Notes under the pieces: model-generated
Seen by the model: only the letters and a program-made list of their open reading frames with translations
The model's database searches: none
What the model was told of the DNA's origin: nothing
From: Octopus sinensis
Lineage: Eukaryota
Direction: 5' to 3'
DNA: 64,000 nucleotides
NCBI RefSeq assembly: GCF_006345805.1
Contig: NC_043002.1
Span: forward strand, 92,132,001 to 92,196,000
Part shown: one piece after another, positions 1 through 41,704 of the stretch
Layout of the letters: the number at the start of each line of letters is the position of its first letter
How positions within the stretch are numbered: position 1 is the stretch's first letter
Position numbers and translations under genes: made by a program

Positions 1-365
1 TATACAAAGAATCAGGTGTTTAGAACAGAAAATAGGAATTACGTAATTTAGTAAGGGACAGCTGCCAAGCGGATATGAACTGCTGACAAGAAAATGGCGA
101 GAAATAAAGGATGTAGGGCAGTAATTATAATTTATTCAGGGAGTTCGATACTGTTGCGGGTGAAGGAGAGTAAAAAAAAAGTCATTCTTGGTCTGGAGAC
201 CTGGCACAAACGCTTTCAAGACAGTTGGCTGCACTAAAGACAACAACGAAGTAAGTCTACCACTCGCATTTAGAAACGGTTTCACCGACGATTAAATTCC
301 ATTCAGAAAATTTTAGTGGTCCGAGACAATTGCAAAAGACACACGACATTCCGTGATGTAGGACA

Positions 366-588
366 GGCGGCGAGCTGGCAGAACCGTTAGCACGCCGGGC
401 GAAATGCGTAGCCGTATTTCATCTGCCGTTACGTTCTGAGTTCAAATTCCGCCGAGATCGACTTTGCCTTTCATCCTTTCGGGGTCGATAAATTAAGTAC
501 CATCAGTCGATGCAATCGACTTAATCCGTTTGTCTGTCCTTGTTTGACCCTTCTGTGTTTAGCCCCTTGTGGGTAGTAAAGAAATAGA
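366..588 (+). mobile_element. tRNA-derived SINE family A (Deu/Nin-like central domain)
   Basis: GGCGAGCTGGCAGAA head and GCCTTTCATCCTTTCGGGGTCGATAAA core. Further copies near 1627-1790, 3199-3408, 3845-4069, 4745-5140, 6780-6990, 7215-7428, 25490-25710, 34570-34950, 62237-62470 and 63200-63830. Confidence 0.85.
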
Positions 589-814
589 TGTAGGATCGAA
601 CCGAAATCGAATTATTTTTAATACACAGCAGCAATAATACAATTGTCAAGAAGTATATGAATATCGTAGCCACCAAGCAATAACTAACCAACACCTCTTC
701 CTAGTCACCAACTTTCGAATAACCACTTGGCATTAACAATAATAGTATCATTGTGATAACGATGTCTGGTTAAATGTGCAGCATATCATCACAACGACAT
801 GGGTGTGCTGTGTA

Positions 815-863
<49 letters not shown>

Positions 864-1095
864 AAGAGAGATAGAGGAAGAGAAAGCGAAAGAAAGAGGA
901 AGATGAGTTTTTATGACTTTAGTCATAGTTGTAAAGGACGAAGTGGCCATCAATCTGGTAATCCATTAACTAACTTTAATCATACAATACGTCCTTCCAC
1001 CTCACTCTATCACGCTTTCATATTGTCATTTCTATTTTTACATCCACAAGTAAAAGTCAATATTTTGCTCTCAAACAACAGTTGTTTCCTTGTAC

Positions 1096-1510
1096 GGATC
1101 TTTTCGGTTTGAACGGCAGTTTTTCTAGCGGTGTCATATGAAATTGTCACCCATAATTATGACCCTAGTATTGATCTATTGCATTTCAATCTGTTTTAGG
1201 GTTAGGGTTAGGGTTATGGGTGGGGGGAGGGTATCTTTTTTTCTACACAAATGTAAATAAACCCAATCTGTTTCTTAAACGAGGGACATATTCATACGAC
1301 ACAGAATGTTTTTTTACCTCAATAGACGTATTTGATTAGTTGAAAGAAATTGAAGAAAAAACAACAAATATCTTACAAACTCTGGAATTTTCTCAATAAA
1401 GCCAAGAGAAAAAGATGTTTTATAAACACATTCTACCAGTATACGAAGTTTAAAATTTTTTAGTTACCTAGAAATTATGTTAAAAACTGCCGTTCAAACC
1501 GAAAAGATCC
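1096..1510 (+). mobile_element. MITE (GG termini, 8-bp TSD; Merlin-like) with internal TTAGGG repeats
   Basis: TIR GGATCTTTTCGGTTTGAACGGCAGTTTT; TSD CCTTGTAC at 1088-1095 and 1511-1518. Confidence 0.88.
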
Positions 1511-2036
1511 CCTTGTACGACTATTATATTATATATTTATTGTAGATAAATACTAATCGCGCCACTGTTGGATTTACCAACAGTTTTACCTACAGTTCAA
1601 GATGTTTGGTAGAAATTACCAACTGGCGGTATTTCGTCCGTCTTTACGTTCTGAGTTCAAATTCCGCCGAGGTCGACTTTGCCTTTCATCCTTTCGGGGT
1701 CGATAAATTAATTACCAGTTGCGTACAGGGGTCGATCTAATCGACTAGCCCTCTCCCCCAAAATTTCGGGCCTTGTGCCTAGAGCAGAAAAGAAATTACC
1801 AACTGGAGTTGAAGGTAGTAGTACGAAGCGAAAAGTAACCGTAAAGAGATTACACTGGATATTAAACCTAATGTTTTTAAAAGGCCTAATACAGAGAAAA
1901 AAAGTCAACTAAATTGTCATAAGATTAAAGCTTACAATCCCTTCGGTAAGGACAATACCTGTCAATAAAGAGGAAAGTATGTCAAGTGCTCAAGAAGTTA
2001 TTCTGTTAAGTGCTCGACCTAATTTGTTAATATACC

Positions 2037-2462
2037 GGATCTCTTCGGTTTGAACGGCAGTTTTTAACATAATTTCTAGGTAACTAAAAAATTTTTAACT
2101 TCGTATACTGGTAGAATGTGTTTATAAAACATCTTTTTCTCTTGGCTTTATTGAGAAAATTCTAGAGTTTGTAAGATATTTGTTGTTTTTTTCTTCAATT
2201 TCTGCAATTTCAACGAATCACTGAAGCCTATTGTGGTAAAAAAAAAAACATTCTGTGCCTTATGAATATGTCCCTCGTTTAAGAAACAGATTGGGTTTAT
2301 TTACATTTGTGAAGAAAAAAATATACCCTTCCCCCCACCCCTAACCCTAACCCTATCCCTAAAACAGATTGAAATGCAATAGATCGATACTAGGGTCATA
2401 ATTATGGGTGACAATTTCATATGACACCGCTAGAAAAACTGCCGTTCAAACCGAAAAGATGC
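2037..2462 (-). mobile_element. Same MITE family, inverted orientation
   Basis: Same TIRs; TSD AATATACC at 2029-2036 and 2463-2470. Confidence 0.88.
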
Positions 2463-2470
2463 AATATACC

Positions 2471-3830
2471 TAACGTAATGCTTAAAATGGAACGATTTTG
2501 AGTGTATGGATCAAGGGCCAGACTCGACATAATGTGACGATAAACACTATGGTAATTTTATTTTTAAAATAGCTAAAAAAATTATATGACAATTTGCAGA
2601 AAAATAAACTTCTAATGGAAAGTGGAAAATTCTGGCTAGTAAATGTTGATCTGAAAGGTTTAAGAAGCGTTTGAATCAGCACCACAGATTCAAATGACTG
2701 GTAAAGTTGCTTGTGCAGATACAGAGGCTGCGACTAATTGGCCTGAGCAGCTGAAGAAAATGATTGCTAAAGGGGTGGGTAGACACCAAAACAAGTATAA
2801 AATATTGATGAAAATTCACTTTCTTGAAGTGCATGCTTGCTAGTTCTGTTATTTCTAAAAAAGAAAAACCATCACCAAAATTCCTCTGACTCACCTTCTG
2901 CAAGGAAATATTACTCTGATGTGAAATTAAAGCCCCTAGTTTCACTCGGAAAACATAAGAGTTTTCAAGGGTTACTCAAAGTTTAAATCTACATATACTG
3001 TTTAAATAAGGAAACATGGATGACTAATATTTGCAAAGCTCTGTTTTCCAAGAGTGGTTTGCAAAACAATTTTGTCCTGAATTTGAAAGGTACATGTCAA
3101 TCATATTTCCAATAAAGCACTGTGTCTTTTAGACAACGTACCAAGCCACCCAGTAAACTTAAATGAGCTTTCTGATGACTTGAGAGCAGAATATATATTT
3201 CTTTACTGCCTACAAGGGGCTAAACATAGAGGGGACAAACAAGGACAGACAAAGGGAGTAAGTCAATTACATTGACCCCAGTGCGAAACTGGTACTTAAT
3301 TTATCGACCCCGAAAGGATGAAAGGCAAAGTCGACCTCGGCGGAATTTGAACTCAGAACGTAGCGGCAGACGAAATGCCTCTAAGCGTTTTACCCGGCGT
3401 GGTAACATTAATTCAGAAAAGATTTATTGACACTTCCAAATGATGATGTAGGTTTTCTAGAAGTCATGCAGGATGATATAGTTCGATTGTCAGTATCCCA
3501 TAGAGAATGTTTATCTAACAAGGAGCTGATAGTGTTAGATCATGAGCAAGCTGAGAATACAAATGAAAACTCGGAAAGGGCTGGCACTTATATAGGAAGG
3601 TCTGCAAGATATTGCATATATCGCCACTAATCGTGAGTGTATGACAATCACATGATTAGTTTACAGTGAGTTCAGTTCTACTAAGAAAGCGTTGATGCAT
3701 TATAAACATCAAAAAGGTTTGGATAAGTTCTTCATTCCTTTTGCAGATGATGAACTATAAGATAGGAAACAGTGTCCTCACCCTAACTCTCAAACAGTTA
3801 TCAATATCTTTTGTGGTAAGAACGCTCCCT
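2471..3830 (+). mobile_element. Tigger/pogo transposase relic, interrupted by SINEs
   Basis: Fragments WMT, FQEWF...FCPE, LLDNVPSHP and GFLEVMQDDIVRLSVSHRECLSNKEL. Boundaries approximate. Confidence 0.65.
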
Positions 3831-7890: not shown

Positions 7891-8026
7891 GGCATAAGGC
7901 GATAGTTTGAAGGAAGGCGTTTGTTCAGTGTTTCTCATCGGCAGGAGACTGTAAAAATTTCAAATGCCAGGTTTGATAAAATCAAGATGATTAATTCTTT
8001 TTTAATTTTTAAACAAGCGCAATACC

Positions 8027-8260
8027 TATTTCTTTATTACCCACAAGGGGCTAAACATAGAAGGGACAAACAAGGACAGACATAGGTATTAAGTCGATTA
8101 CATCGACCCCAGTGCGTAACTGGTACTTAATTTATCGACCCCGAAAGGATGAAAGGTAAAGTCGACCTCGGCGGAATTTGAACTCACAACGTAACGGCAG
8201 ACGAAATACCGCTAAGTATTTCGTCCGACGTGCTAACGTTTCTACCAGCTCTCCGCCTTT
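8027..8260 (-). mobile_element. SINE family A with TSD
   Basis: Full copy flanked by AACAAGCGCAATACC on both sides. Confidence 0.88.
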
Positions 8261-8547
8261 TAACAAGCGCAATACCATGGTGTAAAAAGGAAATATATGG
8301 ATAAGTACTTAAAAGATATTGTGTCTAGAGCCAGCTAGAGACGAAGATCTCTTGGGGCTATAAAGCTACAGTAACACCCCCTCCCCAATGTGGTTAGCCA
8401 TGATAAGATGGCTTCTATACTTTACATTATCGAGCGATTACTGTTTCAATCTCATTCTGAGATTTAATTATGCTTACTGTTCGTTTTTCGACATCAGTGG
8501 CAGACGCCATTAGAAAAACTTATATCTATTTGCAAAGGAGCCTTCAC

Positions 8548-8565
8548 TTTCATCGCTACCTGGTG
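8548..8565 (+). repeat. 18-bp target-site duplication TTTCATCGCTACCTGGTG (also 14097-14114, 19598-19615, 25135-25152)
   Basis: Four exact copies, one at every element junction. Outer flanks differ: CCTTCAC on the left, GTTACCG on the right. Confidence 0.95.
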
Positions 8566-8818
8566 TTTTTTGAATTTTTCCTCGGCGTATACCAATATTT
8601 TTCTGTTGCTGCAAATCGTTGTGTGAGTTCGTTTCCGTTTGTCTACTCTGTCGTGTTACAAGTAATATCATTGTTGAACTGTTTTTGACCCAGTAATTTT
8701 CGCCCTTTGGGGTAGAAAATTTCTGTGTGCTGTTTTGTGTGAACTCTTAACCTGTATAGGTTATTTTTGGAAAAAAAAAAATTCTCTTGTCATTTGTGAC
8801 AAGTTTGTGTTGTCTAAT

Positions 8819-10330
8819 ATGGAATTAGACTTAAGTTCAAAAAAAGACTTTCCCGAGATGGGAGAAGTATAACAACTGTTAAACAAAAGGAAACACAGAC
8901 AAAACCCAGTTTTTCAGACGCCGTAGGTGGCGAAGTCGAAGAAATGGAGGTATCAATGGAAAGATTATTCAAGTTTAGATCGCTGGTGCAAAAAAGTGGC
9001 GAAGAAACACGATTGGTACCGCCCCCCGAAACTATACAAGCAATAAAGGAAAAAATGGTCACCTACAGGGTGTACAATATCAAGAAAAACGAATGACCGA
9101 CGTGAAAAACGAAATGGTCGAAAAGTGTATGGCTCCAATAGGAGTAAAGTTAGTCATGTCAACCGAGGTGCAAGAAGCGCTACAGTGGAGGCGCATTTTG
9201 AAACGGCGGAAGTAGCAAGGCAAATTTCGACACAAACGTTGAAAAACGAGAGTATAATACTGCTACCCTTATATTTAGGATGCAGAACCGCAAAAGTGAC
9301 CCTAGAAGATATACCAAGGGGCTACGACGTGATGTGGGCGGCAACAGCGGTCATTTTTGATGTTGAATCAAAATTGACAATTTTAAGTATGAAGAGAAAA
9401 ATTGCAAAACACTGGAGAGGCCAGCAGCTGGAGATGATAATCCAGGCGGAAAATGCGACGTTGGAAAGCCTACCAGACAGAGTCTTCGTGGGGGAGGGGC
9501 ACTCCATACGAGTTTCGGTGGAAGGACGCAGGCCCAGATGTTTTAAGTGCGGGCAAAAGGGCCACGTTCGCTCCGTTTGCACAAAAAAAAATAATGCGGG
9601 CAACGCCCCCCCACAAAACGCTGTGAAGAACGCAGAAAGCAGCAAAGTGGAGAAAAAAGTAACGGCTGGCGAAAACAAGGAGGAAAAAATAAACAGGTCG
9701 AACTCCAAAAAGGAGGAAGACAAGAACGAAATGCAAAATGAGAAAGGAAAGGATGAGGAAAATAATGCAACAAAAACAAATAAACAAGAAGACATGGAAT
9801 TTACGAACGTGTCCAACAAAAGGAAAAAATCCATCACCCCTGACTCCCCACCCGTATCAAAAAAAAAAACAACGCAGACGAACAAATTAAAAATATTCTC
9901 CAATCCCACCCCGGCGGTACTACACTTATAGGCCAGCACTTTAACAAACCCCACCCCCCAACTGTAAAAGGGTTTAAACCCAACGAAAAAATTATTGCAT
10001 ACACCACAAAGAACGTGAGAGTAGAAACATGGGTGAAAGCAAGTACGCTGATCAGGTGCTACAAAGCGACCGAGAAGGAAGCAGGAGGCGGAGTGGCGAT
10101 ATGGAAGGGTCGGCGAAGAAGGATGGAAAGACAAAACCTTACAAAGCCACGTAAAAGCCGGCTTCATTAAGGATGTCACCCAGGAGGTGACAACTGGGAA
10201 ATTACCCGTTAGCCCGGCAGCCACACCAACCCAGAGCCCGGTGGCAACGCCGGTGAAACACCCAGCAGCAACGGCGAGTGGGGGGGAGACAGGCAGAAAG
10301 AATCTGTCAGGCTCCCTCTCGCAACCGTGA
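8819..10330 (+). CDS. ORF1 (gag-like nucleic-acid-binding protein), copy 1, frameshifted as given
   Basis: Starts MELDLSSKKDFPEMG. Contains the CX2CX4HX4C knuckle CFKCGQKGHVRSVC followed by a K/E/N-rich linker. Ends at TGA 10328-10330. About 500 aa when the three copies are reconciled. Confidence 0.85.
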
Positions 10331-10353
10331 GTAAATAATTTTCTTTTTTCTCG

Positions 10354-13300
10354 ATGATTAAGTTAGGTTGTATAAATGTGCGTGGAATGGGATCGAAATG
10401 GAAACAGGCTTGTTTTCGTGACGACCTCATTTCACATAGAATCGAATCGAGTAGCTATTGTTACCGAGTCCAAGATGAAGGGACCCCAAGCGTTCTCACC
10501 ACTTCTCAATGGTTACGAGAAATTTATTTCTCCTAGCCGAGGGGGAGGTGCAGGCGTGGCAGTTCTTTTCAGGAAGAACTTGGACTTACAGGTAAGTACT
10601 GTCTTTTTGGACCCAGAAGGTAGGCTGGTTGTCCTAGATGTGACGCACGTGAGTAAGCAGTCCTTCAGGTTGGTGGCTGTCTACGCTCCTAACGGACGTG
10701 GGCAGACCGGTTTTTATCGGGAACTGGAGCACTTTCTAGTGACGTCCAAAACGGTAGTCTTGGTAGGGGATTTCAACACCATTCTCGATGCGCGGGTGGA
10801 TGGTGTAGGCTCGAGCGATAGGAAGGGGAATCCTGGCCTCAAGGCTCTACTAGCGAGCTTTAATCTAGTAGACCGTTTTCGACTGGATGAGCCGAACGTT
10901 CCACAGTGGACGTGGAGTAATAACGACGGCTCACTCAGATCGTACATAGATAGAGTATTTGTTAAGGAACGAGATAGGAATAGTGTTAGCTGTCCACAAT
11001 TCTCTGTTGTGCCTTACACGGATCACAAACTTGTAACGTGTGAGGTACATGTAGATAAATGCCATAGACAAGGTCCCGGGTACTGGAAGATGAACAAGTC
11101 TATTTTGACCTGTGAAGCTTTCCGTACCCGGATTAAGGAATTAGTACAGAGGGCATTATGTGGCACCATCATTAATAATAGATGGTGGCTCGCCCTCAAA
11201 AGAGCCATCCGTTTGGAGTCCATTAGATTTAGCAAGCAGCTAAGTTTAGATAGGACTAGAATAGAGGGCGAATTAGTTAAGAACTTAGACGAGGCTATGG
11301 AATCTGGCTGTGCATCCGGAGTGTTGGCAGCGAGAGCGGTATTGTACCGTCACCTCAACGCCAAGCACGAGGGGTGTAGAGTCAGAGCTAAGTTACGTGC
11401 AGGAAAACGAGAAGGTATTAACGTTGCCGGATGGGCCCGTCGTGAGGAGAGTCAGAAGGGCAAAAAGTCCTGTATTATGTCCTTAACTGACGAGCAGGAC
11501 CGCAAGATCTATGGACAGGAGGAGATGCAGAAGGTCCTTCACCAGCATTTCGCACGGCTGTTTGGGGGCGGTGGCCCGCTCGAGCGTGGGGAGACCTTAA
11601 AGGACTTCCTAGCTGGTGGGCCTCGGCTCTCGGCAGGTGAGGCGGAGTGCTGTGAAGGATCGATCTCTCCCGCAGAGGTAAGAGGGGTTATGGCCGAGTG
11701 CGCGGGGAAAAGTCACCGGGATTGGATGGTCTACCCTATGAATTTTATTGTTGTATGCCGGACTTGTTCGGGGACATACTGGCAAGCGTCTATGCAAACT
11801 GGCAACAGAATGGGAGGATTCCCAGCTCTGTGAGTCGGGGAGTTGTGACGCTGGTCCAGAAAGACCCGAGCAAGGGGGACAGTATTAGTAATTACAGGCC
11901 CATAACTCTACTTAATGTAGAGTTTAAGATTTTGGCCAAGGTGTTAGCAAAAAGGTTGACGGCTGTCGTGAAGAAACTTGTCGGGAAGGCACAGACATGT
12001 GCAATCCCAGGCAGGTCGATCCAGGATAATCTTCACCTTCTCCGCTACACTATAGATAGGGTCGGGAAATTAGACGGCAAAGGAGGGGCATTGGTCCATT
12101 TAGACCAAAGTAAAGCGTTTGATAGGGTGGACCATCGGTACTTGGCGGCGGTTCTCGAAGCGGCTGGGCTGGGCCCTGGCTTCTGCGGGTGGATCTCAGC
12201 TATGTACAGCGGCATCAAGTCCACAGTCCAGATAAACGGTTACCTAACGGAGCCGTTTTCGATCAAGCGTTCAGTTCGACAAGGGTGCCCCTTGTCCCCG
12301 CTCCTGTATGTTTTGGCTCTTGAGCCATTGCTGCGGAAGCTGGAGAAGTTGGGAGGCAACCCTAATGAAATCGGATGCGGTAAGTCTGTTTCTGCCTATG
12401 CGGATGACGTCACCCTCATCGTGTCCAACGGAACACAGCTACCTCGGGTAGTAGGTGCTCTCCATAGATACGAAGCGGTGGCAGGGGCAAAAGTTAACAG
12501 GGACAAGTCCATCGGTTTGCGCCTCGGCACCTGGAGGAACAAGCAGATACCGTCCAGTGTTGTTGGACACTGGACGGATGGTCCTGTTAAATTGCTCGGA
12601 GTATGGTTTGGTCCAGACTCCCAGACGGAGAAGAATTGGAGCGAGGTAACGAGCAAGGTGGATGCCATAGTACGGAAGTGGTCCGGAAGGCATCTTTCCT
12701 TGAAAGGGAGGGCGGAGGTGGCACAGATGTTTATAGCCTCTGTCGTCACCTACCGCCTGACCGTCGTGCCTTGCCCCGATTCGTGGTTAAACAAGTTGGA
12801 ACGACTTCTTTTCCGCTTTTTGTGGAAAGGAGGAAAGCCACTTGTGAGACGCTCCGTGTGTTGCCAGGAACCGCTAAAGGGTGGACTGGGGATGCCTTGG
12901 CTAATGATGCGCAAGCATGCGTTGAGGCTGAGACACCTCTGGTGTTACCTGGAGGATGATAAGGTGGGAGTTCGCTGGCAGAGGAATTCTTCCCGCGACC
13001 GGCCTCTATGGAGGGATTTACACCCGGTCTCATTAAAGGACGTAAACTGACTTCATGGCAGAAGGAGTGCCGACAGGCACTCTGGCTGATCCACAAGATG
13101 GGTAAGGCCGGCAGCGGGAATACCACCTCGGTGTTCTATAAAGGGCTGGTAGGAGGAAAAAATGACGACGTCCTAGGAAGGGCTCTGGGGTTCGATGAGG
13201 ATCAACTCTCCAACCTGTTTAAGAAGACTTTCAGGCCGGGGTATTTGGATAATTACCAAAAATCCCTGACCTGGCAGTGCTATAGGAATGCATTACCTGT

Positions 13301-13745
13301 TCGCGAGAAGTTATCCAGGCACGGAATGTCAGTGCCACCGACGTGTCCAAGATGTGGGTTGGACGATGAAACCGTTCAACACGCTTTTGTACAATGTCGG
13401 GAGCTGTCAGGCTTGATAAGTTACGTGGAACACGTGTTGTCGCATCTGGGACGAGTACAGCTGTCGGCTGGATCTATGATTAAGATGATACCGCCAACTG
13501 GACTCTCAAAGGAAGGTAAGGCTTGTTTTTACTGTACGGTGGCAGTATTGAAAGAGTGTGTATGGAGAACTAGAGTGGAAGGTCTAGTGAAAGGGTCCTT
13601 TATCTCTGGCCCCGGTTTGTTAAAATACTTCGGATATCATCTGAAGAGCAAGATGGGGTTGGAGAAGAGGAGCCTGCCACAGAAAGAGTATATGGAACGT
13701 TGGAAGGATGTGATGAGAAAGGTGGGTGAGAGTAGCCCAGCTTAA
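10354..13745 (+). CDS. ORF2 (APE endonuclease - reverse transcriptase - CCHC), copy 1, frameshifted as given
   Basis: APE motifs INVRG, VYAP, GDFN, IDR, TDH. RT motifs SPGLDG, YRPITLLN, LDQSKAFDRVDH, QGCPLSP, YADD. Tx1/L1-type WSGRHLSLKGR, FLWKG, GGLG. C-terminal CPRC...H...C. Confidence 0.92.
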
Positions 13746-14369
13746 TCATCGAGGAAAGGAGGGATCGGCTGCTGGGATTTATAGGCTGCCGGGTTCAAAA
13801 TTGAAACTGGTACCTCCCATTACCTTTCACTGTACATAACTGTTTAAAATAAAGAATTAATAATAAAAAAAAAGAAATGAAAAGAAAACATACGCACTAA
13901 AAGTTCTCGTGATAAAGGCAAAAGTAAGCCAAGGTTTCGTTTCAAGGCAAAGTAAGCCAAGTTTTCGTTCAAGTGACATAAAATTTTAATTTTGTAATTT
14001 TTTAAATTTCATTCGAACTCGCATAGCATTTTTGTAACTGTTTTGTCCTGTAATGTATCCATTCTATGTTAGATCTATTGATCATAATAAAGAAAATTTC
14101 ATCGCTACCTGGTGTTTTTTGAATTTTTCCTCGGCGTATACCAATATTTTTCTGTTGCTGCAAATCGTTGTGTGAGTTCGTTTCCGTTTGTCTACTCTGT
14201 CGTGTTACAAGTAATATCATTGTTGAACTGTTTTTGACCCAGTAATTTTCGCCCTTCGGGGTGATAGAAAATTTTTGTGTGCGTTTTGTGTGAACTCTTA
14301 ACCTGTATAGGTTATTTTTGGAAAAAAAAAAATTCTCTTGTCATTTGTGACAAGTTTGTGTTGTCTAAT

Positions 14370-15878
14370 ATGGAATTAGACTTAAGTTCAAAAAAAGACT
14401 TTCCCGAGATGGGAGAAAGTATAACAACTGTTAAACAAAAGGAAACACAGACAAAACCCAGTTTTTCAGACGCCGTAGGTGGCGAAGTCGAAGAAATGGA
14501 GGTATCAATGGAAAGATTATTCAAGTTTAGATCGCTGGTGCAAAAAAGTGGTGCGAAGAAACACGATTGGTACCGCCCCCCGAAAACTACAAGCAATAAA
14601 GGAAAAAATGGTCACCTACAGGGTGTACAATATCAAGGAAAAACGAATGACCGACGTGAAAAACGAAATGGTCGAAAAGTGTATGGCTCCAATATGGAGT
14701 AAAGTTAGTCATGTCAACCGAGGTGCAAGAAGCGCTACAGTGGAGGCGCATTTTGAAACGGCGGAAGTAGCAAGGCAAATTTCGACACAAACGTTGAAAA
14801 ACGAGAGTATAATACTGCTACCCTTATATTTAGGATGCAGAACCGCAAAAGTGACCCTAGAAGATATACCAAGGGGCTACGACGTGATGTGGGCGGCAAC
14901 AGCGGTCATTTTTGATGTTGAATCAAAATTGACAATTTTAAGTATGAAGAGAAAAATTGCAAAACACTGGAGAGGCCAGCAGCTGGAGATGATAATCCAG
15001 GCGGAAAATGCGACGTTGGAAAGCCTACCAGACAGAGTCTTCGTGGGGGAGGGGCACTCCATACGAGTTTCGGTGGAAGGACGCAGGCCCAGATGTTTTA
15101 AGTGCGGGCAAAAGGGCCACGTTCGCTCCGTTTGCACAAAAAAAAATAATGCGGGCAACGCCCCCCCACAAAACGCTGTGAAGAACGCAGAAAGCAGCAA
15201 AGTGGAGAAAAAAGTAACGGCTGGCGAAAACAAGGAGGAAAAAATAAACAGGTCGAACTCCAAAAAGGAGGAAGACAAGAACGAAATGCAAAATGAGAAA
15301 GGAAAGGATGAGGAAAATAATGCAACAAAAACAAATAAACAAGAAGACATGGAATTTACGAACGTGTCCAACAAAAGGAAAAAATCCATCACCCCTGACT
15401 CCCCACCCGTATCAAAAAAAAAAACAACGCAGACGAACAAATTAAAAATATTCTCCAATCCACCCCGGCGGTACTACACTTATAGGCCAGCACTTTAACA
15501 AACCCCACCCCCCAACTGTAAAAGGGTTTAAACCCAACGAAAAAATTATTGCATACACCACAAAGAACGTGAGAGTAGAAACATGGGTGAAAGCAAGTAC
15601 GCTGATCAGTGTGCTACAAAGCGACCGAGAAGGAAGCGGAGTGGCGATATGGAAGGGTCGGCGAAGAAGGATGGAAAGACAAAACCTTACAAAGCCACGT
15701 AAAAGCCGGCTTCATTAAGGATGTCACCCAGGAGGTGACAACTGGGAAATTACCCGTTAGCCCGGCAGCCACACCAACCCAGAGCCCGGTGGCAACGCCG
15801 GTGAAACACCCAGCAGCAACGGCGAGTGGGGGGGAGACAGGCAGAAAGAATCTGTCAGGCTCCCTCTCGCAACCGTGA
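14370..15878 (+). CDS. ORF1, copy 2, frameshifted as given
   Basis: Same protein as copy 1, split over ORF-track pieces 14277-14702, 14479-15498 and 15609-15878. Confidence 0.85.
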
Positions 15879-15901
15879 GTAAATAATTTTCTTTTTTCTC
15901 G

Positions 15902-18900
15902 ATGATTAAGTTAGGTTGTATAAATGTGCGTGGAATGGGATCGAAATGGAAACAGGCTTGTTTTCGTGACGACCTCATTTCACATAGAATCGAAGTAGCT
16001 ATTGTTACCGAGTCCAAGATGAAGGGACCCCAAGCGTTCTCACCACTTCTCAATGGTTACGAGAAATTTATTTCTCCTAGCCGAGGGGGAGGTGCAGGCG
16101 TGGCAGTTCTTTTCAGGAAGAACTTGGACTTACAGGTAAGTACTGTCTTTTTGGACCCAGAAGGTAGGCTGGTTGTCCTAGATGTGACGCACGTGAGTAA
16201 GCAGTCCTTCAGGTTGGTGGCTGTCTACGCTCCTAACGGACGTGGGCAGACCGGTTTTTATCGGGAACTGGAGCACTTTCTAGTGACGTCCAAAACGGTA
16301 GTCTTGGTAGGGGATTTCAACACCATTCTCGATGCGCGGGTGGATGGTGTAGGCTCGAGCGATAGGAAGGGGAATCCTGGCCTCAAGGCTCTACTAGCGA
16401 GCTTTAATCTAGTAGACCGTTTTCGACTGGATGAGCCGAACGTTCCACAGTGGACGTGGAGTAATAACGACGGCTCACTCAGATCGTACATAGATAGAGT
16501 ATTTGTTAAGGAACGAGATAGGAATAGTGTTAGCTGTCCACAATTCTCTGTTGTGCCTTACACGGATCACAAACTTGTAACGTGTGAGGTACATGTAGAT
16601 AAATGCCATAGACAAGGTCCCGGGTACTGGAAGATGAACAAGTCTATTTTGACCTGTGAAGCTTTCCGTACCCGGATTAAGGAATTAGTACAGAGGGCAT
16701 TATGTGGCACCATCATTAATAATAGATGGTGGCTCGCCCTCAAAAGAGCCATCCGTTGGAGTCCATTAGATTTAGCAAGCAGCTAAGTTTAGATAGGACT
16801 AGAATAGAGGGCGAATTAGTTAAGAACTTAGACGAGGCTATGGAATCTGGCTGTGCATCCGGAGTGTTGGCAGCGAGAGCGGTATTGTACCGTCACCTCA
16901 ACGCCAAGCACGAGGGGTGTAGAGTCAGAGCTAAGTTACGTGCAGGAAAACGAGAAGGTATTAACGTTGCCGGATGGGCCCGTCGTGAGGAGAGTCAGAA
17001 GGGCAAAAAGTCCTGTATTATGTCCTTAACTGACGAGCAGGACCGCAAGATCTATGGACAGGAGGAGATGCAGAAGGTCCTTCACCAGCATTTCGCACGG
17101 CTGTTTGGGGGCGGTGGCCCGCTCGAGCGTGGGGAGACCTTAAAGGACTTCCTAGCTGGTGGGCCTCGGCTCTCGGCAGGTGAGGCGGAGTGCTGTGAAG
17201 GATCGATCTCCGCCCGCAGGTAAGAGGGGCTATGGCCGAGTGCGCCGGGGAAAAGTCACCGGGATTGGATGGTCTACCCTATGAATTTTATTGTTGTATG
17301 CCGGACTTGTTCGGGGACATACTGGCAAGCGTCTATGCAAACTGGCAACAGAATGGAGGATTCCCAGCTCTGTGAGTCGGGGAGTTGTGACGCTGGTCCA
17401 GAAAGACCCGAGCAAGGGGGACAGTATTAGTAATTACAGGCCCATAACTCTACTTAATGTAGAGTTTAAGATTTTGGCCAAGGTGTTAGCAAAAAGGTTG
17501 ACGGCTGTCGTGAAGAAACTTGTCGGGAAGGCACAGACATGTGCAATCCCAGGCAGGTCGATCCAGGATAATCTTCACCTTCTCCGCTACACTATAGATA
17601 GGGTCGGGAAATTAGACGGCAAAGGAGGGGCATTGGTCCATTTAGACCAAAGTAAAGCGTTTGATAGGGTGGACCATCGGTACTTGGCGGCGGTTCTCGA
17701 AGCGGCTGGGCTGGGCCCTGGCTTCTGCGGGTGGATCTCAGCTATGTACAGCGGCATCAAGTCCACAGTCCAGATAAACGGTTACCTAACGGAGCCGTTT
17801 TCGATCAAGCGTTCAGTTCGACAAGGGTGCCCCTTGTCCCCGCTCCTGTATGTTTTGGCTCTTGAGCCATTGCTGCGGAAGCTGGAGAAGTTGGGAGGCA
17901 ACCCTAATGAAATCGGATGCGGTAAGTCTGTTTCTGCCTATGCGGATGACGTCACCCTCATCGTGTCCAACGGAACACAGCTACCTCGGGTAGTAGGTGC
18001 TCTCCATAGATACGAAGCGGTGGCAGGGGCAAAAGTTAACAGGGACAAGTCCATCGGTTTGCGCCTCGGCACCTGGAGGAACAAGCAGATACCGTCCAGT
18101 GTTGTTGGACACTGGACGGATGGTCCTGTTAAATTGCTCGGAGTATGGTTTGGTCCAGACTCCCAGACGGAGAAGAATTGGAGCGAGGTAACGAGCAAGG
18201 TGGATGCCATAGTACGGAAGTGGTCCGGAAGGCATCTTTCCTTGAAAGGGAGGGCGGAGGTGGCACAGATGTTTAGACCGTCTTTCCTTACCCGTGCCTC
18301 TTTGTGGAAAAGGTGGGAAACAGTTGTGAACGAACGCTTGTGGAAGGTGTTGCGCCAGGAAACCGTGCGAACGCTAAAGGGTGGACTGGGGATGCCTTGG
18401 CTAATGATGCGCAAGCATACGTTGAGGCTGAGACACCTCTGGTGTTACCTGGAGGATGATAAGGTGTGGAGTTCGCTGGCAGAGGAATTCTTCCCGCGAC
18501 CGGCCTCTATGGAGGGATTTACACCCGGTCTCATTAAAGGACGTAAACTGACTTCATGGCAGAAGGAGTGCCGACAGGCACTCTGGCTGATCCACAAGAT
18601 GGGTAAGGCCGGCAGCGGGAATACCACCTCGGTGTTCTATAAAGGGCTGGTAGGAGGAAAAAATGACGACGTCCTAGGAAGGGCTCTGGGGTTCGATGAG
18701 GATCAACTCTCCAACCTGTTTAAGAAGACTTTCAGGCCGGGGTATTTGGATAATTACCAAAAATCCCTGACCTGGCAGTGCTATAGGAATGCATTACCTG
18801 TTCGCGAGAAGTTATCCAGGCACGGAATGTCAGTGCCACCGACGTGTCCAAGATGTGGGTTGGACGATGAAACCGTTCAACACGCTTTTGTACAATGTCG

Positions 18901-19246
18901 GGAGCTGTCAGGCTTGATAAGTTACGTGGAACACGTGTTGTCGCATCTGGGACGAGTACAGCTGTCGGCTGGATCTATGATTAAGATGATACCGCCAACT
19001 GGACTCTCAAAGGAAGGTAAGGCTTGTTTTTACTGTACGGTGGCAGTATTGAAAGAGTGTGTATGGAGAACTAGAGTGGAAGGTCTAGTGAAAGGGTCCT
19101 TTATCTCTGGCCCCGGTTTGTTAAAATACTTCGGATATCATCTGAAGAGCAAGATGGGTTGGGAGAGAGAGGAGCCTGCACAGAAAGAGTATATGGAACG
19201 TTGGAAGGATGTGATGAGAAAGGTGGGTGAGAGTAGCCCAGCTTAA
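15902..19246 (+). CDS. ORF2, copy 2, frameshifted as given
   Basis: Pieces 15902-16786 (APE), 16726-17223 and 17291-19246 (RT with YADD plus CCHC). Confidence 0.92.
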
Positions 19247-19868
19247 TCATCGAGGAAAGGAGGGATCGGCTGCTGGGATTTATAGGCTGCCGGGTTCAAA
19301 ATTGAAACTGGTACCTCCCATTACCTTTCACTGTACATAACTGTTTAAAATAAAGAATTAATAATAAAAAAACAGAAATGAAAAGAAAACATACGCACTA
19401 AAAGTTCTCGTGATAAAGGCAAAAGTAAGCCAAGGTTTCGTTTCAAGGCAAAGTAAGCCAAGTTTTCGTTCAAGTGACATAAAATTTTAATTTTGTAATT
19501 TTTTAAATTTCATTCGAACTCGCATAGCATTTTTGTAACTGTTTTGTCCTGTAATGTATCCATTCTATGTTAGATCTATTGATCATAATAAAGAAAATTT
19601 CATCGCTACCTGGTGTTTTTTGAATTTTTCCTCGGCGTATACCAATATTTTTCTGTTGCTGCAAATCGTTGTGTGAGTCGTTTTCCGTTTGTCTACTCTG
19701 TCGTGTTACAAGTAATATCATTGTTGAACTGTTTTTGACCCAGTAATTTTCGCCCTTCGGGGTAGAAAATTTCTGTGTGCTGTTTTGTGTGAACTCTTAA
19801 CCTGTATAGGTTATTTTTGGAAAAAAAAAAATTCTCTTGTCATTTGTGACAAGTTTGTGTTGTCTAAT

Positions 19869-21374
19869 ATGGAATTAGACTTAAGTTCAAAAAAGACTTT
19901 CCCGAGATGGGAGAAAGTATAAACACTGTTAAAAAAAGGAAACACAGACAAAACCCAGTTTTTCAGACGCCGTAGGTGGCGAAGTCGAAGAAATGGAGGT
20001 ATCAATGGAAAGATTATTCAAGTTTAGATCGCTGGTGCAAAAAAGTGGTGAAGAAGAAACACGATTGGTACCGCCCCCCGAAACTATACAAGCAATAAAG
20101 GAAAAAATGGTCACCTACAGGTGTACAATATCAAGGAAAAACGAATGACCGACGTGAAAAACGAAATGGTCGAAAAGTGTATGGCTCCAATATGGAGTAA
20201 AGTTAGTCCTGTCAACCGAGGTGCAAGAAGCGCTACAGTGGAGGCGCATTTTGAAACGGCGGAAGTAGTAGCAAGGCAAATTTCGACACAAACGTTGAAA
20301 AACGAGAGTATAATACTGCTACCCTTATATTAGGATGCAGAACCGCAAAAGTGACCCTAGAAGATATACCAAGGGGCTACGACGTGATGTGGGCGGCAAC
20401 AGCGGTCATTTTTGATGTTGAATCAAAATTGACAATTTTAAGTATGAAGAGAAAAATTGCAAAACACTGGAGAGGCCAGCAGCTGGAGATGATAATCCAG
20501 GCGGAAAATGCGACGTTGGAAAGCCTACCAGACAGAGTCTTCGTGGGGGAGGGGCACTCCATACGAGTTTCGGTGGAAAGACGCAGGCCCAGATGTTTAA
20601 GTGCGGGCCAAAGGGGCCACGTTCGCTCCGTTTGCACAAAAAAAAATAATGCGGGCAACGCCCCCCCACAAAACGCTGTGAAGAACGCAGAAAGCAGCAA
20701 AGTGGAGAAAAAAGTAACGGCTGGCGAAAACAAGGAGGAAAAATAAACAGGTCGAACTCCAAAAAGGAGGAAGACAAGAACGAAATGCAAAAGATGAGAA
20801 AGGAAAGGATGAGGAAAATAATGCAACAAAACAAATAAACAAGAAGACATGGAATTTACGAACGTGTCCAACAAAAGGAAAAAATCCATCACCCCTGACT
20901 CCCCACCCGTATCAAAAAAAAAAACAACGCAGACGAACAAATTAAAATATTCTCCAATCCCACCCCGGCGGTACTACACTTATAGGCCAGCACTTTAACA
21001 AACCCCACCCCCCAACTGTAAAAGGGTTTAAACCCAACGAAAAAATTATTGCATAACCACAAAGAACGTGAGAGTAGAAACATGGGTGAAAGCAAGTACG
21101 CTGATCAGGTGCTACAAAGCGACCGAGAAGGAAGCGGAGTGGCGATATGGAAGGGTCGGCGAAGAAGGATGGAAAGACAAAACCTTACAAAGCCACGTAA
21201 AAGCCGGCTTCATTAAGGATGTCACCCAGGAGGTGACAACTGGGGAATTACCCGTTAGCCCGGCAGCCACACCAACCCAGAGCCCGGTGGCAACGCCGGT
21301 GAACACCCAGCAGCAACGGCGAGTGGGGGGGAGACAGGCAGAAAGAATCTGTCAGCTCCCTCTCGCAACCGTGA
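19869..21374 (+). CDS. ORF1, copy 3, frameshifted as given
   Basis: Same sequence as copies 1 and 2 with several small indels. Confidence 0.8.
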
Positions 21375-21397
21375 GTAAATAATTTTCTTTTTTCTCG

Positions 21398-24300
21398 ATG
21401 ATTAAGTTAGGTTGTATAAATGTGCGTGGAATGGGATCGAAATGGAAACAGGCTTGTTTTCGTGACGACCTCATTTCACATAGAATCGAAGTAGCTATTG
21501 TTACCGAGTCCAAGATGAAGGGACCCCAAGCGTTCTCACCACTTCTCAATGGTTACGAGAAATTTATTTCTCCTAGCCGAGGGGGAGGTGCAGGCGTGGC
21601 AGTTCTTTTAAGGAAGAACTTGGACTTACAGGTAAGTACTGTCTTTTTGGACCTAGAAGGTAGGCTGGTTGTCCTAGATGTGACGCACGTGAGTAAGCAG
21701 TCCTTCAGGTTGGTGGCTGTCTACGCTCCTAACGGACGTGGGCAGACCGGTTTTTATCGGGAACTGGAGCACTTTCTAGTGACGTCCAAAACGGTAGTCT
21801 TGGTAGGGGATTTCAACACCATTCTCGATGCGCGGGTGGATGGTGTAGGCTCGAGCGATAGGAAGGGGAATCCTGGCCTCAAGGCTCTACTAGCGAGCTT
21901 TAATCTAGTAGACCGTTTTCGACTGGATGAGCCGAACGTTCCACAGTGACGTGGAGTAATAACGACGGCTCACTCAGATCGTACATAGATAGAGTATTTG
22001 TTAAGGAACGAGATAGGAATAGTGTTAGCTGTCCACAATTCTCTGTTGTGCCTTACACGGATCACAAACTTGTAACGTGTGAGGTACATGTAGATAAATG
22101 CCATAGACAAAGGTCCCGGGTACTGGAAGATGAACAAGTCTATTTTGACCTGTGAAGCTTTCCGTACCCGGATTAAGGAATTAGTACAGAGGGCATTATG
22201 TGGCACCATCATTAATAATAGATGGTGGCTCGCCCTCAAAAGAGCCATCCGTTTGGAGTCCATTAGATTTAGCAAGCAGCTAAGTTTAGATAGGACTAGA
22301 ATAGAGGGCGAATTAGTTAAGAACTTAGACGAGGCTATGGAATCTGGCTGCTGTGCATCCGGAGTGTTGGCAGCGAGAGCGGTATTGTACCGTCACCTCA
22401 ACGCCAAGCACGAGGGGTGTAGAGTCAGAGCTAAGTTACGTGCAGGAAAACGAGAAGGTATTAACGTTGCCGGATGGGCCCGTCGTGAGGAGAGTCAGAA
22501 GGGCAAAAAGTCCTGTATTATGTCCTTAACTGACGAGTAGGACCGCAAGATCTATGGACAGGAGGAGATGCAGAAGGTCCTTCACCAGCATTTCGCACGG
22601 CTGTTTGGGGCGGTGGCCCGCTCGAGCGTGGGGAGACCTTAAAGACTTCCTAGCTGGTGGGCCTCGGCTCTCGGCAGGTGAGGCGGAGTGCTGTGAAGAT
22701 CGATCTCTCCCGCAGAGGTAAGAGGGGCTATGGCCGAGTGCGCCGGGGAAAAGTCACGGGATTGGATGGTCTACCCTATGAATTTTATTGTTGTATGCCG
22801 GACTTGTTCGGGGACATACTGGCAAGCGTCTATGCAAACTGGCAACAGAATGGGAGAATTCCCAGCTCTGTGAGTCGGGGAGTTGTGACGCTGGTCCAGA
22901 AAGACCCGAGCAAGGGGGACAGTATTAGTAATTACAGGCCCATAACTCTACTTAATGTAGAGTTTAAGATTTTGGCCAAGGTGTTAGCAAAAGGTTGACG
23001 GCTGTCGTGAAGAAACTTGTCGGGAAGGCACAGACATGTGCAATCCCAGGCAGGTCGATCCAGGATAATCTTCACCTTCTCCGCTACACTATAGATAGGG
23101 TCGGGAAATTAGACGGCAAAGGAGGGGCATTGGTCCATTTAGACCAAAGTAAAGCGTTGATAGGGTGGACCATCGGTACTTGGCGGCGGTTCTCGAAGCG
23201 GCTGGGCTGGGCCCTGGCTTCTGCGGGTGGATCTCAGCTATGTACAGCGGCATCAAGTCCACAGTCCAGATAAACGGTTACCTAACGGAGCCGTTTTCGA
23301 TCAAGCGTTCAGTTCGACAAGGGTGCCCCTTGTCCCCGCTCCTGTATGTTTTGGCTCTTGAGCCATTGCTGCGGAAGCTGGAGAAGTTGGGAGGCAAACC
23401 TAATGAAATCGGATGCGGTAAGTCTGTTTCTGCCTATGCGGATGACGTCACCCTCATCGTGTCCAACGGAACACAGCTACCTCGGGTAGTAGGTGCTCTC
23501 CATAGATACGAAGCGGTGGCAGGGGCAAAAGTTAACAGGGACAAGTCCATCGGTTTGCGCCTCGGCACCTGGAGGAACAAGCAGATACCGTCCAGTGTTG
23601 TTGGACACTGGACGGATGGTCCTGTTAAATTGCTCGGAGTATGGTTTGGTCCAGACTCCCAGACGGAGAAGAATTGGAGCGAGGTAACGAGCAAGGTGGA
23701 TGCCATAGTACGGAAGTGGTCCGGAAGGCATCTTTCCTTGAAAGGGGAGGCGGAGGTGGCACAGATTGTTTAGCCTCTGTCGTCACCTACCGCCTGACCG
23801 TCGTGCCTTGCCCCGATTCGTGGTTAAACAAGTTGGAACGACTTCTTTTCCGCTTTTTGTGGAAAGGAGGAAAGCCACTTGTGAGACGCTCCGTGTGTTG
23901 CCAGGAACCGCTAAAGGGTGGACTGGGGATGCCTTGGCTAATGATGCGCAAGCATACGTTGAGGCTGAGACACCTCTGGTGTTACCTGGAGGATGATAAG
24001 GTGTGGAGTTCGCTGGCAGAGGAATTCTTCCCGCGACCGGCCTCTATGGAGGGATTTACACCCGGTCTCATTAAAGGACGTAAACTGACTTCATGGCAGA
24101 AGGAGTGCCGACAGGCACTCTGGCTGATCCACAAGATGGGTAAGGCCGGCAGCGGGAATACCACCTCGGTGTTCTATAAAGGGCTGGTAGGAGGAAAAAA
24201 TGACGACGTCCTAGGAAGGGCTCTGGGGTTCGATGAGGATCAACTCTCCACCTGTTTAAGAAGACTTTCAGGCCGGGGTATTTGGATAATTACCAAAAAT

Positions 24301-24783
24301 CCCTGACCTGGCAGTGCTATAGGAATGCATTACCTGTTCGCGAGAAGTTATCCAGGCACGGAATGTCAGTGCCACCGACGTGTCCAAGATGTGGGTTGGA
24401 CGATGAAACCGTTCAACACGCTTTTGTACAATGTCGGGAGCTGTCAGGCTTGATAAGTTACGTGGAACACGTGTTGTCGCATCTGGGACGAGTACAGCTG
24501 TCGGCTGGATCTATGATTAAGATGATACCGCCAACTGGACTCTCAAAGGAAGGTAAGGCTTGTTTTTACTGTACGGTGGCAGTATTGAAAGAGTGTGTAT
24601 GGGAACTAGAGTGGAAGGTCTAGTGAAAGGGTCCTTTATCTCTGGCCCCGGTTTGTTAAAATACTTCGGATATCATCTGAAGAGCAAGATGGGGTTGGAG
24701 AAGAGGAGCCTGCCACAGAAAGAGAGTATATGGAACGTTGGAAGGATGTGATGAGAAAGGTGGGTGAGAGTAGCCCAGCTTAA
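21398..24783 (+). CDS. ORF2, copy 3, multiply frameshifted, CAG>TAG at 22538-22540
   Basis: APE, RT (YADD) and CCHC motifs spread over several ORF-track fragments. Confidence 0.85.
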
Positions 24784-25157
24784 TCATCGAGGAAAGGAGG
24801 GATCGGCTGCTGGGATTTATAGGCTGCCGGGTTCAAAATTGAAACTGGTACCTCCCATTACCTTTCACTGTACATAACTGTTTAAAATAAAGAATTAATA
24901 ATAAAAAAACAGAAATGAAAAGAAAACATACGCACTAAAAGTTCTCGTGATAAAGGCAAAAGTAAGCCAAGGTTTCGTTTCAAGGCAAAGTAAGCCAAGT
25001 TTTCGTTCAAGTGACATAAAATTTTAATTTTGTAATTTTTTAAATTTCATTCGAACTCGCATAGCATTTTTGTAACTGTTTTGTCCTGTAATGTATCCAT
25101 TCTATGTTAGATCTATTGATCATAATAAAGAAAATTTCATCGCTACCTGGTGGTTAC

Positions 25158-25200
25158 CGCCCGTTGACGAGGGACAACAATCCCGAAACTAGTTCGAGCG
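25158..25200 (+). ncRNA. Minimal type I hammerhead ribozyme motif (U3 variant)
   Basis: CGCCCG | UUGACGA | GGGA-caacaa-UCCC | GAAA | C-UA-G | UU^ | CGAGCG. Stem I has 5 of 6 pairs, stem II 4 bp, stem III is palindromic and minimal. Predicted cut after 25194. Confidence 0.75.
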
Positions 25201-25879
25201 TATCACTCAGGCTTGCGAGGAAGGGATGGCCTCCCTTTGCAAATACTCCAAGGACACAGATATTGTGTCTAGAGCCAGCTAGAGACGAAGATCTCTTGGG
25301 GCTATAAAGCTACAGTAACACCCCCTCCCCAATGTGGTTAGCCATGATAAGATGGCTTCTATACATTACATTATCGAGCGATTACTGTTTCAATCTCATT
25401 CTGAGATTTAATTAGACTTAAAATGCCTTCTCATTAATAAAGAGATGGTAGTGAAAAATAAGTCGCTAATATTTGGGGGGGGGAGTATGCCGGTGAGCTG
25501 GCAGAATCGTTAGCACACTGGCAAAATGCTTAGCGGCGTTTCGTTCGTCTTGCCCTTCTGTGTTCGAATTCCGCTAAACTCAACTTTGTTTTTCATCTTT
25601 TTATGGTCGATGAAATAAGTACCTATTGAACCGTGAGGTCGATGAAGTCGACTTACTCCGCTGGCCCTAAATTGCTGACCTTGAGCCAAAATTTGGAACC
25701 AATATTTTGAGGGAGGAGGCTGGTGTTTGTCATCTTGAGAAACATTGGATTAGACGATTAAATCTACTTCGGTACTTGATCGGTTCTTAAATTTATCAGC
25801 GGGATGTGAAATCTGAAAGTATGATAAGATCAAATATAAGATCTGACACGTTAACGATTCTGTTAATCTATTATGGAAT

Positions 25880-41129: not shown

Positions 41130-41704
41130 CATAAGAGACTAAAGCCATCTGAATATGGCTAGGGACAGGGTAGGGTGGTGGGGGTGTTACTGTTGCATTT
41201 AGCCCCAGGCGAACATCAACGTCGCCAGATAGGCTTGACACCATCACGGCGTCCTCTATCCTGCAAAGGGAGATAATTCCCCGATGAAGCGGAAACCACA
41301 CACGGACCTAGGTTTCAAGGTGTATTGCCTATCATCAACGTGTGGTAGGCCCCCGCTTCCTCGACGAACAACTCACTCTGCAGGATATTTATATATAGAT
41401 TTTCAAGCAAAATACATTTGCTGATTTCGAAAATCTGTTCGACAGCAATAATAATTCTCTAAATGAGATATAGACAGTAACTGCTCCATAACATAAGGGA
41501 CTAAAGCCATCTGAATATGGCTAGGGACAGGGCAGGGTGGTGGGGGTGTTACTGTTGCATTTAGCCCCAGGCGAACATCAACGTCGCCAGATAGGCTTGA
41601 CACCCCCACCACCCTGCCCTGTCCCTAGCCATATTCAGATGGCTTTAGTCCCTTATGTTATGGAGCAGTTACTGTCTATATCTCATTTAGAGAATTATTA
41701 TTGC

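Follow-up and report, generated by a model that had tools for sequence, protein, structure and literature searches.

Long interspersed elements (LINEs) that are specialised on another mobile element are known from the families Tx1L, Tx1-Mar, Tx1-9_AMi, Tx1-4_AMi and Tx1-8_Crp, which form tandem insertions enclosing the target duplication and have non-autonomous partners with the same target (PMC4494074). The elements listed as targeting small nuclear RNA (snRNA) genes are Keno, Utopia and Dada (PMC4640811; PMC8869645). Here we describe LINEs of Octopus sinensis that insert into a hammerhead ribozyme repeat. They were analysed starting from a tandem array in a 64,000-nucleotide stretch of contig NC_043002.1 (assembly GCF_006345805.1, positions 92,132,001 to 92,196,000, forward strand), which is called the window below.

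The octopus LINEs resemble the Tx1L-type families in their specialisation on a mobile element, their tandem insertions and their non-autonomous partner. The targets listed for those families are, however, piggyBac, Mariner, Harbinger and long terminal repeat elements, with no ribozyme repeat or Penelope derivative among them, and no dependence on a promoter is shown for them (PMC4494074). Like Keno, the octopus element is a LINE with an APE-type endonuclease, 15-18-bp duplications, tandem insertion and likely use of an snRNA promoter; metagenome relatives that lie at U2 position 36 and carry U2 5′ heads have reverse transcriptases (RTs) 36-40% identical to that of the present lineage. Keno-site elements cut inside U2 (at about 36-38), whereas the present lineage cuts at +1 and nearly always in the hammerhead repeat. 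It is not Keno itself, since only one of 40 copies lies at U2, there at +1, and since it forms a separate clade.

Metazoan retrozymes are units of 150-450 nt with a type I hammerhead, present as monomers and dimers and stably folded (PMC7229834; bioRxiv 10.64898/2026.07.22.740005). Animal retrozymes have been argued to be non-autonomous derivatives of Penelope-like elements (PLEs) (bioRxiv 10.64898/2026.07.22.740005), whose hallmarks are 5′ truncation, partial tandems, 5′ inversion, a tail of about 40 nt and microsatellite flanks (bioRxiv 10.1101/2021.04.23.441226). The octopus repeat has these features at the level of sequence and predicted fold; it differs in comprising mostly 1-1.5 units, with no long arrays seen. 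The source passages on retrozymes name no promoter, no cephalopod and no targeting LINE (PMC7229834; bioRxiv 10.64898/2026.07.22.740005). Newt satellite 2 is a hammerhead repeat in which an internal snRNA-type polymerase II promoter has been described (as cited in PMC2220036), and the newt hammerhead is cleaved as a dimer (PMC6155905). The octopus repeat appears similar in all three respects (hammerhead, internal snRNA-type promoter, dimeric cleavage), but satellite 2 is a tandem amphibian satellite, while the octopus repeat is dispersed, molluscan and occupied by a LINE at its start site. Repeat annotation of Octopus vulgaris yielded 13 recently active L1-Tx1 families, the passage concerned making no mention of targets or ribozymes (PMC13282606). 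Searches of the openly accessible literature, without Repbase, Repbase Reports or Dfam, brought up no LINE that has a retrozyme or a Penelope derivative as its target; a LINE targeted to a hammerhead repeat is apparently undescribed so far, as a sequence-only reading of the window had supposed.

LINE insertion at one register of a hammerhead repeat

The window contains three head-to-tail LINEs of about 5.5 kb with pairwise identities of 97.4-98.6%, which are inserted in a hammerhead repeat with 18-bp duplications between them and at both ends. This 18-mer occurs exactly four times in the 64 kb (8548, 14097, 19598 and 25135), and no further copy with up to three mismatches is present. Joining the flanks yields a repeat unit of 357 nt, and a natural locus with two hammerheads has a unit of 358 nt. 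The repeat is terminally redundant over about 158 nt (8314-8476 against 25258-25420, 160 of 163 positions matching) and is itself bounded by an 8-bp duplication, ACTTAAAA, at 8307-8314 and 25416-25423. The sequence-only reading had described the 18-bp target bounding the array and the redundant 357-nt unit, and had proposed that the LINE is specific for a retrozyme and that uninterrupted copies of the unit exist. These claims were borne out, the last two by searches of the 2.72-Gb genome, in which only the 40 best candidates per search (of 89-3003) were scored.

The last 185 nt of the LINE, without target letters, were used as query for the window's family, termed family A. Among the best 40 of 207 candidates, 38 3′ ends lie at the site, the three of the window included; 29 of them lead directly into the hammerhead unit and nine into the duplication followed by another element of the group. 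The remaining two are located at the 5′ end of a complete U2 gene and in unrelated sequence (L029). At the other end of the LINE (40 of 102 candidates scored, 30 inspected), 27 of 30 5′ ends adjoin the upstream half of the repeat, and the other three follow another LINE. Family C was found at the site in 39 of 40 scored copies (best 40 of 309), and family D, which codes only for an ORF1-like protein, in all 25 loci (18 in the repeat, seven in tandem). A sister family was never at the site (0 of 25 loci); ten of its copies have one other flank in common and five another, with no Rfam family in the seven loci scanned, and these shared flanks may belong to the element. The 3′ flanks of this family (L431-L455, from 1318 candidates) include two recurrent kinds, and it may have target repeats of its own.

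Target duplications are genuine and 14-18 bp long. Of 63 pairs compared, 40 are identical and 21 show differences, in most cases of a single position; the script had set the other two in a wrong register. A single LINE family occupies six or more repeat types, the half upstream of the LINE being of the type found downstream, and types E and H are entered in the same register, although their longest BLAST match to types A, B and C is 24 nt. The copy at U2 (L101, G000:C3:19726037-19731582) is a full-length family A LINE at +1 of one gene in a cluster of about ten U2 copies, and its leader is derived from the hammerhead repeat. Most LINE copies are full length. Arrays of mixed families exist, and in both of the two informative ones the later insertion is on the promoter side. 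The empty-site joint is also present in contigs of runs X1 and X18, and X18 contains in addition a LINE-LINE joint with 18 shared letters; an X15 contig at the 5′ junction was excluded because it had fewer than 31 letters on one side. Altogether, these data show that two autonomous groups (A/B and C) and one ORF1-only family insert almost exclusively at one register of the hammerhead repeat. The phenomenon is real and genome-wide.

Some loci deserve separate mention. In L367 (G000:C2:159164400-159171400) a piece of the repeat in inverted orientation precedes a LINE 3′ fragment; Penelope machinery may here have moved a composite of LINE and retrozyme. ORF1-only family D forms tandem arrays in L426, L422 and L428 (G000:C1:98465845-98469458) and in L459, the latter with repeated 1.4-kb chimeras whose 5′ end is of family B and whose 3′ end is of family D.

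The host repeat and its hammerhead motif

Empty copies with continuous upstream repeat are abundant. For types A, B and E they make up 26, 23 and 26 loci, respectively, of 30 each (from 889, 3003 and 1422 candidates). The 3′ ends of 29 of 30 empty copies lie at one of two positions about 45 nt apart, +229 to +237 or +278 to +287. Empty copies are 5′-truncated, ten of 30 are 5′-inverted and 13 of 30 adjoin (TA)n. These properties, together with partial tandems and a tail of 30-40 nt, match the PLE hallmarks, and PLEs with a GIY-YIG domain occur in the genome. Two tandem hammerheads are present in eight loci (L065, L077, L082, L084, L089, L090, L147 and L355), so that the repeat also has the layout of a retrozyme, a non-coding repeat of 150-450 nt with a type I hammerhead and some dimeric copies. 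A joint extending the unit past its end was found in contigs of all four runs. It is uninformative on circular RNA, since genomic partial tandems contain the same joint. On sequence grounds the host repeat is a dispersed, 5′-truncated and often 5′-inverted repeat, like a non-autonomous PLE, and not a long tandem satellite. The earlier identification of the host as a non-LTR retrozyme therefore stands as regards the 357-358-nt hammerhead unit with some dimers and is refined to a dispersed repeat resembling a non-autonomous Penelope-like element. A different, minimal hammerhead-like motif was seen in a long hairpin near a GIY-YIG match in L380 (about 3000-3150, minus strand position 175).

The hammerhead of the window consists of the core UUGACGA (25164-25170), helix II (25171-25184), GAAA (25185-25188) and a palindromic, loopless helix III, ACUAGU (25188-25193); the triplet is GUU, with a predicted cut after 25194. 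Across the repeat types the motif has the core CUGANGA/GAAA/NUH, helices I-III and an open helix I; type B is canonical and type A is a U3 variant. Rfam model HH9 matched 25146-25216 with an E value of 6.7e-6 and 31.2 bits, which is under the gathering score of 52, and there was no match at the gathering threshold. In an alignment of 19 sequences and 25 pairs, 85.1% of the cells are paired and 24 two-sided changes were counted, which was reached in none of 500 shuffles, with slid controls at 42% or less; the sequences are related, the structure was drawn from the same sequences and two type E rows are misaligned. Positions 3 and 8 of 130 distinct hammerheads are C-G in 81, U-G in 38, U-A in ten and C-A in one, and helix III is a perfect palindrome in 88 of the 130. 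The palindrome predicts dimeric cleavage, as in newt. In the minimum-energy fold the target is paired with the segment 3′ of the cut, and the natural monomer folded as a circle has a z score of -3.8. Thus, the folding proposed by the sequence-only reading was recovered, and its hammerhead is supported by the core and the covariation, with an HH9 match that stays below the Rfam threshold.

Putative promoter motifs and the choice of target

The insertion in U2 defines the register, since the nick lies 4 nt before U2 +1 (ATCGC) and likewise before ATCGC in type A repeats. Counted from this +1, ATCAGT at -59 (one mismatch allowed) is present in 28 of 29 U2 and 18 of 20 U1 loci; the U2 locus without it is the occupied gene. 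We scanned about 295 six-mers in the 300 nt upstream for position-matched occurrence in at least four of five repeat types and at least three of eight U1/U2 promoter classes. ATCAGT at -59 was the sole one found, with five of five repeat types and seven of eight classes, and 54 shifted registers gave at most two of eight classes. A second motif, CCTCCCTT near -265, is common to the repeat and U1 and also lies at about -263 in two of three U6 loci and in no U2 locus; CTCCCTT occurs between -300 and -200 in all 20 U1 loci. The position-matched comparison with the host genes gives a U1/U2-type layout (proximal near -60, distal near -250, putative start at A); the -59 motif is likely the proximal and the -265 motif possibly the distal sequence element. 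A U6-type (polymerase III) promoter was considered, but a U1/U2-type one was preferred because the U6 loci inspected lack ATCAGT and because of two runs of T, a T5 within the unit and a T6 at the start of the LINE. A long tandem array with a divergent U6 variant and octamer-like and TATA motifs upstream was noted in L224-L235 (G000:C1:141.83-141.95 Mb).

Natural truncations of the repeat allowed us to compare occupied with empty copies. Of 62 occupied copies, 60 retain the -59 motif, compared with 27 of 49 empty ones (p 7e-8). An upstream stretch of 130 nt or more is present in 60 of 62 occupied and 15 of 49 empty copies (p 2e-14). The 62 occupied copies exclude tandem junctions, the U2 site, the apparent duplicates L145, L364 and L370, 5′-truncated LINEs, and L148, L367 and L368, which have no upstream repeat; two of the 49 empty copies are arms of one inverted pair. 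For type E the bias is seven of eight occupied versus seven of 26 empty (p 0.004), several occupied type E loci having been missed by the pattern. All five independent 5′-truncated insertions have the -59 motif upstream. The 5′ duplication contains a donor-type leader at the U2 site and in L142, and does so routinely in family D, suggesting that +1 or a position very few bases away is the likely start of the LINE RNA. Since upstream and downstream types match, we discarded long 5′ transduction of the repeat as an explanation.

As the more probable explanation we favour that each unit of the repeat ends with a promoter of the U1/U2 type, and that the LINE nicks the start site where the promoter region is intact, aided by the short ATC(G) motif, and is then transcribed from this promoter. 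In the scheme that we infer for start site, promoter activity, tethering, cleavage and circularisation, the repeat would be a non-autonomous retrozyme mobilised by Penelope machinery, each unit being transcribed from a promoter in the end of the preceding one. The start of polymerase II would be ATC(G), with the hammerhead cut about 56 nt further on, and two hammerheads, probably as a dimer via the palindromic helix III, would release a monomer able to circularise. The LINE endonuclease would nick 0-4 nt before +1, with guidance both from the short local motif and from the active promoter, the latter through bound snRNA factors or open chromatin. LINE RNA would begin with about 14 nt of target, which might sometimes be copied into new sites, and new copies would enter the promoter-side duplication, giving tandem arrays. 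Start-site insertion would thus offer the LINE a harmless landing site and a ready-made promoter. Insertion at a position set by the distance to the promoter of a small-RNA gene is known from Ty3 and the Dictyostelium TRE elements, where polymerase III factors and tRNA genes are involved; the promoter discussed here resembles those of U1 and U2, and the tethering is putative.

Several observations weigh against this explanation. The upstream bias reaches to about -135, beyond the -59 motif, and no conserved motif between -135 and -60 explains it. The -265 motif is missing upstream of most occupied copies, and the -59 motif is absent from the occupied copies L087 and L142 and changed to ACAAGT in type H. 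Since the -59 motif lies inside a small hairpin, its conservation could be due in part to RNA structure. Direct read-out contributes, as seen from the conservation of ATC(G) and of a GG downstream. At +1, one of 30 U2 loci and none of 20 U1 loci is occupied, though all have the promoter; selection or the local motif may be behind these rare hits. As to the ribozyme, a canonical type B copy gave no Rfam match at E<=1, and the type A hammerhead, with U3 and GUU, may be slow. No sequence common to the unit and an autonomous PLE was found in 30 of 147 GIY-YIG loci. Finally, L368 is off target, and the family C query contained about eight target letters.

The strongest competitor is ordinary Tx1 sequence targeting, in which the APE endonuclease reads a degenerate site of 20-30 bp (ATCG-N4-C-N-GG with pyrimidines upstream) and the promoter matters only for later transcription. 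Non-LTR target choice is said to depend mainly on the endonuclease (PMC4494074), ATCG, C9, G11, G12 and C20 are invariant in the eight target types of family C, and the occupied U2 site starts with ATCGCT like type A while U1 (ATACT) is unoccupied. We nevertheless regard reading of the site alone as unlikely. The invariant letters would be expected by chance at about 19,000 sites, against 39 of 40 insertions on target, and family D uses ATCAA, ATCAC, ATCTG and CAGTAG. Moreover, 42 of the 49 empty copies keep at least 20 nt upstream and hence an intact local site, yet copies with short upstream sequence are almost never occupied (p 2e-12 at 130 nt). Guidance by nucleic acid, either by pairing of a read-through tail of the LINE RNA with the repeat or by recognition of a DNA hairpin or R-loop of the helix I arms, would fit the strong folding of the unit and the conserved helix I pairing; a long read-through tail would also match because the region upstream of -134 recurs downstream. 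It is improbable, since the same LINE families enter types E and H, which have almost no likeness to A, B and C, since the occupied U2 gene lacks the helix, and since the duplications follow the local type down to rare variants present in both duplications of a copy (L144, L350 and L357). That the target is an arm of helix I, as the sequence-only reading had noticed, is correct as to the pairing. It is probably a consequence and not a cause of targeting: the RNA would start there, and the sequence of the site varies widely while its distance to the snRNA-promoter motif is fixed.

The remaining two explanations question the specificity itself. If a few LINE-in-repeat composites had been multiplied by Penelope machinery, specificity would be mimicked, and L367, with its Penelope-style 5′ inversion, and L148, which is 5′-truncated and without upstream repeat, could have arisen in this way. 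This is largely refuted as a general cause and very improbable: one LINE family lies in at least six repeat types with matching halves, at L359, L360, L366 and L371 a 5′-truncated LINE adjoins intact upstream repeat and has target duplications, arrays of mixed families exist, and the mostly full-length copies are not expected from truncation-prone copying. The many single-base gaps of the assembly might also raise the suspicion of an artefact, or of a hammerhead that is the LINE's own 3′ end. The empty loci of types A, B and E with continuous upstream repeat, the repeat before 27 of 30 LINE 5′ ends and the joints in the run contigs refute both, and we attach practically no probability to them. 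Going beyond the favoured promoter-dependent nicking, the LINEs might dock on the snRNA machinery (SNAPc) instead of reading DNA alone. They would then be animal LINEs with factor-tethered insertion at a polymerase II start, which shifted from snRNA genes to the dispensable promoters of retrozymes, available in thousands, and animal retrozymes would generally be transcribed from an internal promoter of the U1/U2 type. We put this forward tentatively, as a possible extension that is less likely than the promoter dependence itself.

LINE families, window features and significance

The window LINEs contain the domains zf-CCHC, Exo_endo_phos (APE), RVT_1 (RT) and zf-RVT in the Tx1-type layout, with a zinc knuckle in open reading frame 1 (ORF1) and an APE endonuclease, RT and C-terminal zinc finger in ORF2. 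The closest relative with a solved structure is human L1 ORF2. The RT is 33-40% identical to those of elements at the Keno (U2) and 5S sites, and phmmer gave about 300 bits for such relatives versus 162 for human L1. The cephalopod group forms a clade of its own (17 rows, SH-aLRT 100) outside the Keno-site clade, in trees that contain neither named Repbase references nor an L1 outgroup and whose deep branches are unsettled. Judged from these sequences, the group likely belongs to the Tx1 clade. The closest named proteins are from Argonauta (64%) and Acanthosepion (49%). Family C is identical to A/B at 82% of DNA and 85% of RT positions, and the sister family at about 70% of RT positions. Family D is about 1.6 kb long, its protein is 29% identical to ORF1 of family A (E 2e-30) and its 3′ end resembles the LINE 3′ end. 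We take it to be comparable to HAL1-type ORF1-only elements, with the difference that it has a fixed target site in common with its presumed mobiliser. The reading frames of the window LINEs are broken in the assembly, largely because of the single-base gaps typical of it (28-49 gap openings between the window copies). None of 46 loci checked has an intact ORF2 (longest frame 798 aa), a count that the assembly gaps make uninformative.

Among the relatives in metagenomes, some lie at the Keno site of U2 or at 5S rRNA, and some have heads derived from U1 or U2; an Rfam scan of 20 of these loci returned U2 and 5S, and a pattern search of 80 found no hammerhead motif. No relative was found among viral contigs. 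In five metagenome loci (L257, L258, L281, L267 and L302) there are Tx1-like elements whose 5′ heads stem from U2 (51 or 33 nt) or from U1, and one element precedes U1 from position 36, possibly representing a U1-targeting family. The clusters P0005, P0015 and P0025 comprise sister-clade ORF2 proteins (385-732 members) on long ENA contigs.

The features of the window are listed in Table 1. The second, type D repeat has the core UUGAUGA, a palindromic helix III and ATCAGC about 60 nt 5′ of the helix I arm. ORF2 of LINE copy 2 contains a short rearranged stretch near 18250-18350, which appears as a foreign peptide in a long frame. The hammerhead element is flanked by repeats at about 8020-8260 and 25480-25670, which look like octopus tRNA-derived short interspersed elements. 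Matches resembling tRNA-Leu(UAA) on the minus strand (34320-34402, 40545-40627 and 42345-42427) may be tRNA genes or tRNA-derived repeats.

Table 1. Coordinates of the repeat, LINE and ribozyme features in the 64-kb window.
Feature	Position	Strand
Partial hammerhead repeat on the upstream side (-238 to -5 relative to a putative +1 at 8552)	8314..8547	+
ATCAGT at -59, as in the U1 and U2 genes of the host in the same register; likely proximal sequence element	8493..8498	+
Target site duplication 1; putative transcription start 8552 (A of ATCG, U2 +1 register)	8548..8565	+
LINE copy 1 (family A)	8566..14096	+
LINE copy 1, ORF1 with zinc knuckle	about 9047-9931	+
LINE copy 1, APE endonuclease	from about 10376	+
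LINE copy 1, RT	11656-13050	+
LINE copy 1, zf-RVT	12963-13745	+
Target site duplication 2	14097..14114	+
LINE copy 2	14115..19597	+
Target site duplication 3	19598..19615	+
LINE copy 3; terminates in AATAAAGAAAA, without poly(A) tail	19616..25134	+
Target site duplication 4, the 5′ arm of extended helix I	25135..25152	+
Type I hammerhead with 3′ arm of helix I	25153..25225	+
CCTCCCTT, -267 from +1 of the next unit; possible distal element	25230..25237	+
3′ part of the repeat; of the two recurrent 3′ ends (about +235 and +280) it has the longer	25238..25415	+
Second, diverged hammerhead repeat (type D), empty, with inverted piece and (TA)n flanks; hammerhead 41270-41362	41142..41701	-

A ribozyme-bearing retroelement is a new target class for Tx1-like LINEs, and the system has three tiers, a presumably Penelope-mobilised retrozyme, a LINE and an ORF1-only hitchhiker. 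The natural truncations of the target serve as a built-in deletion series and point to promoter context, beside endonuclease read-out, in LINE targeting. The shared motifs are candidates for promoter elements both of retrozymes in invertebrates and of snRNA genes in cephalopods, and would extend a feature reported for newt satellite 2. As a compact LINE with near-exclusive use of a dispensable site, the element may be of interest for targeted integration.

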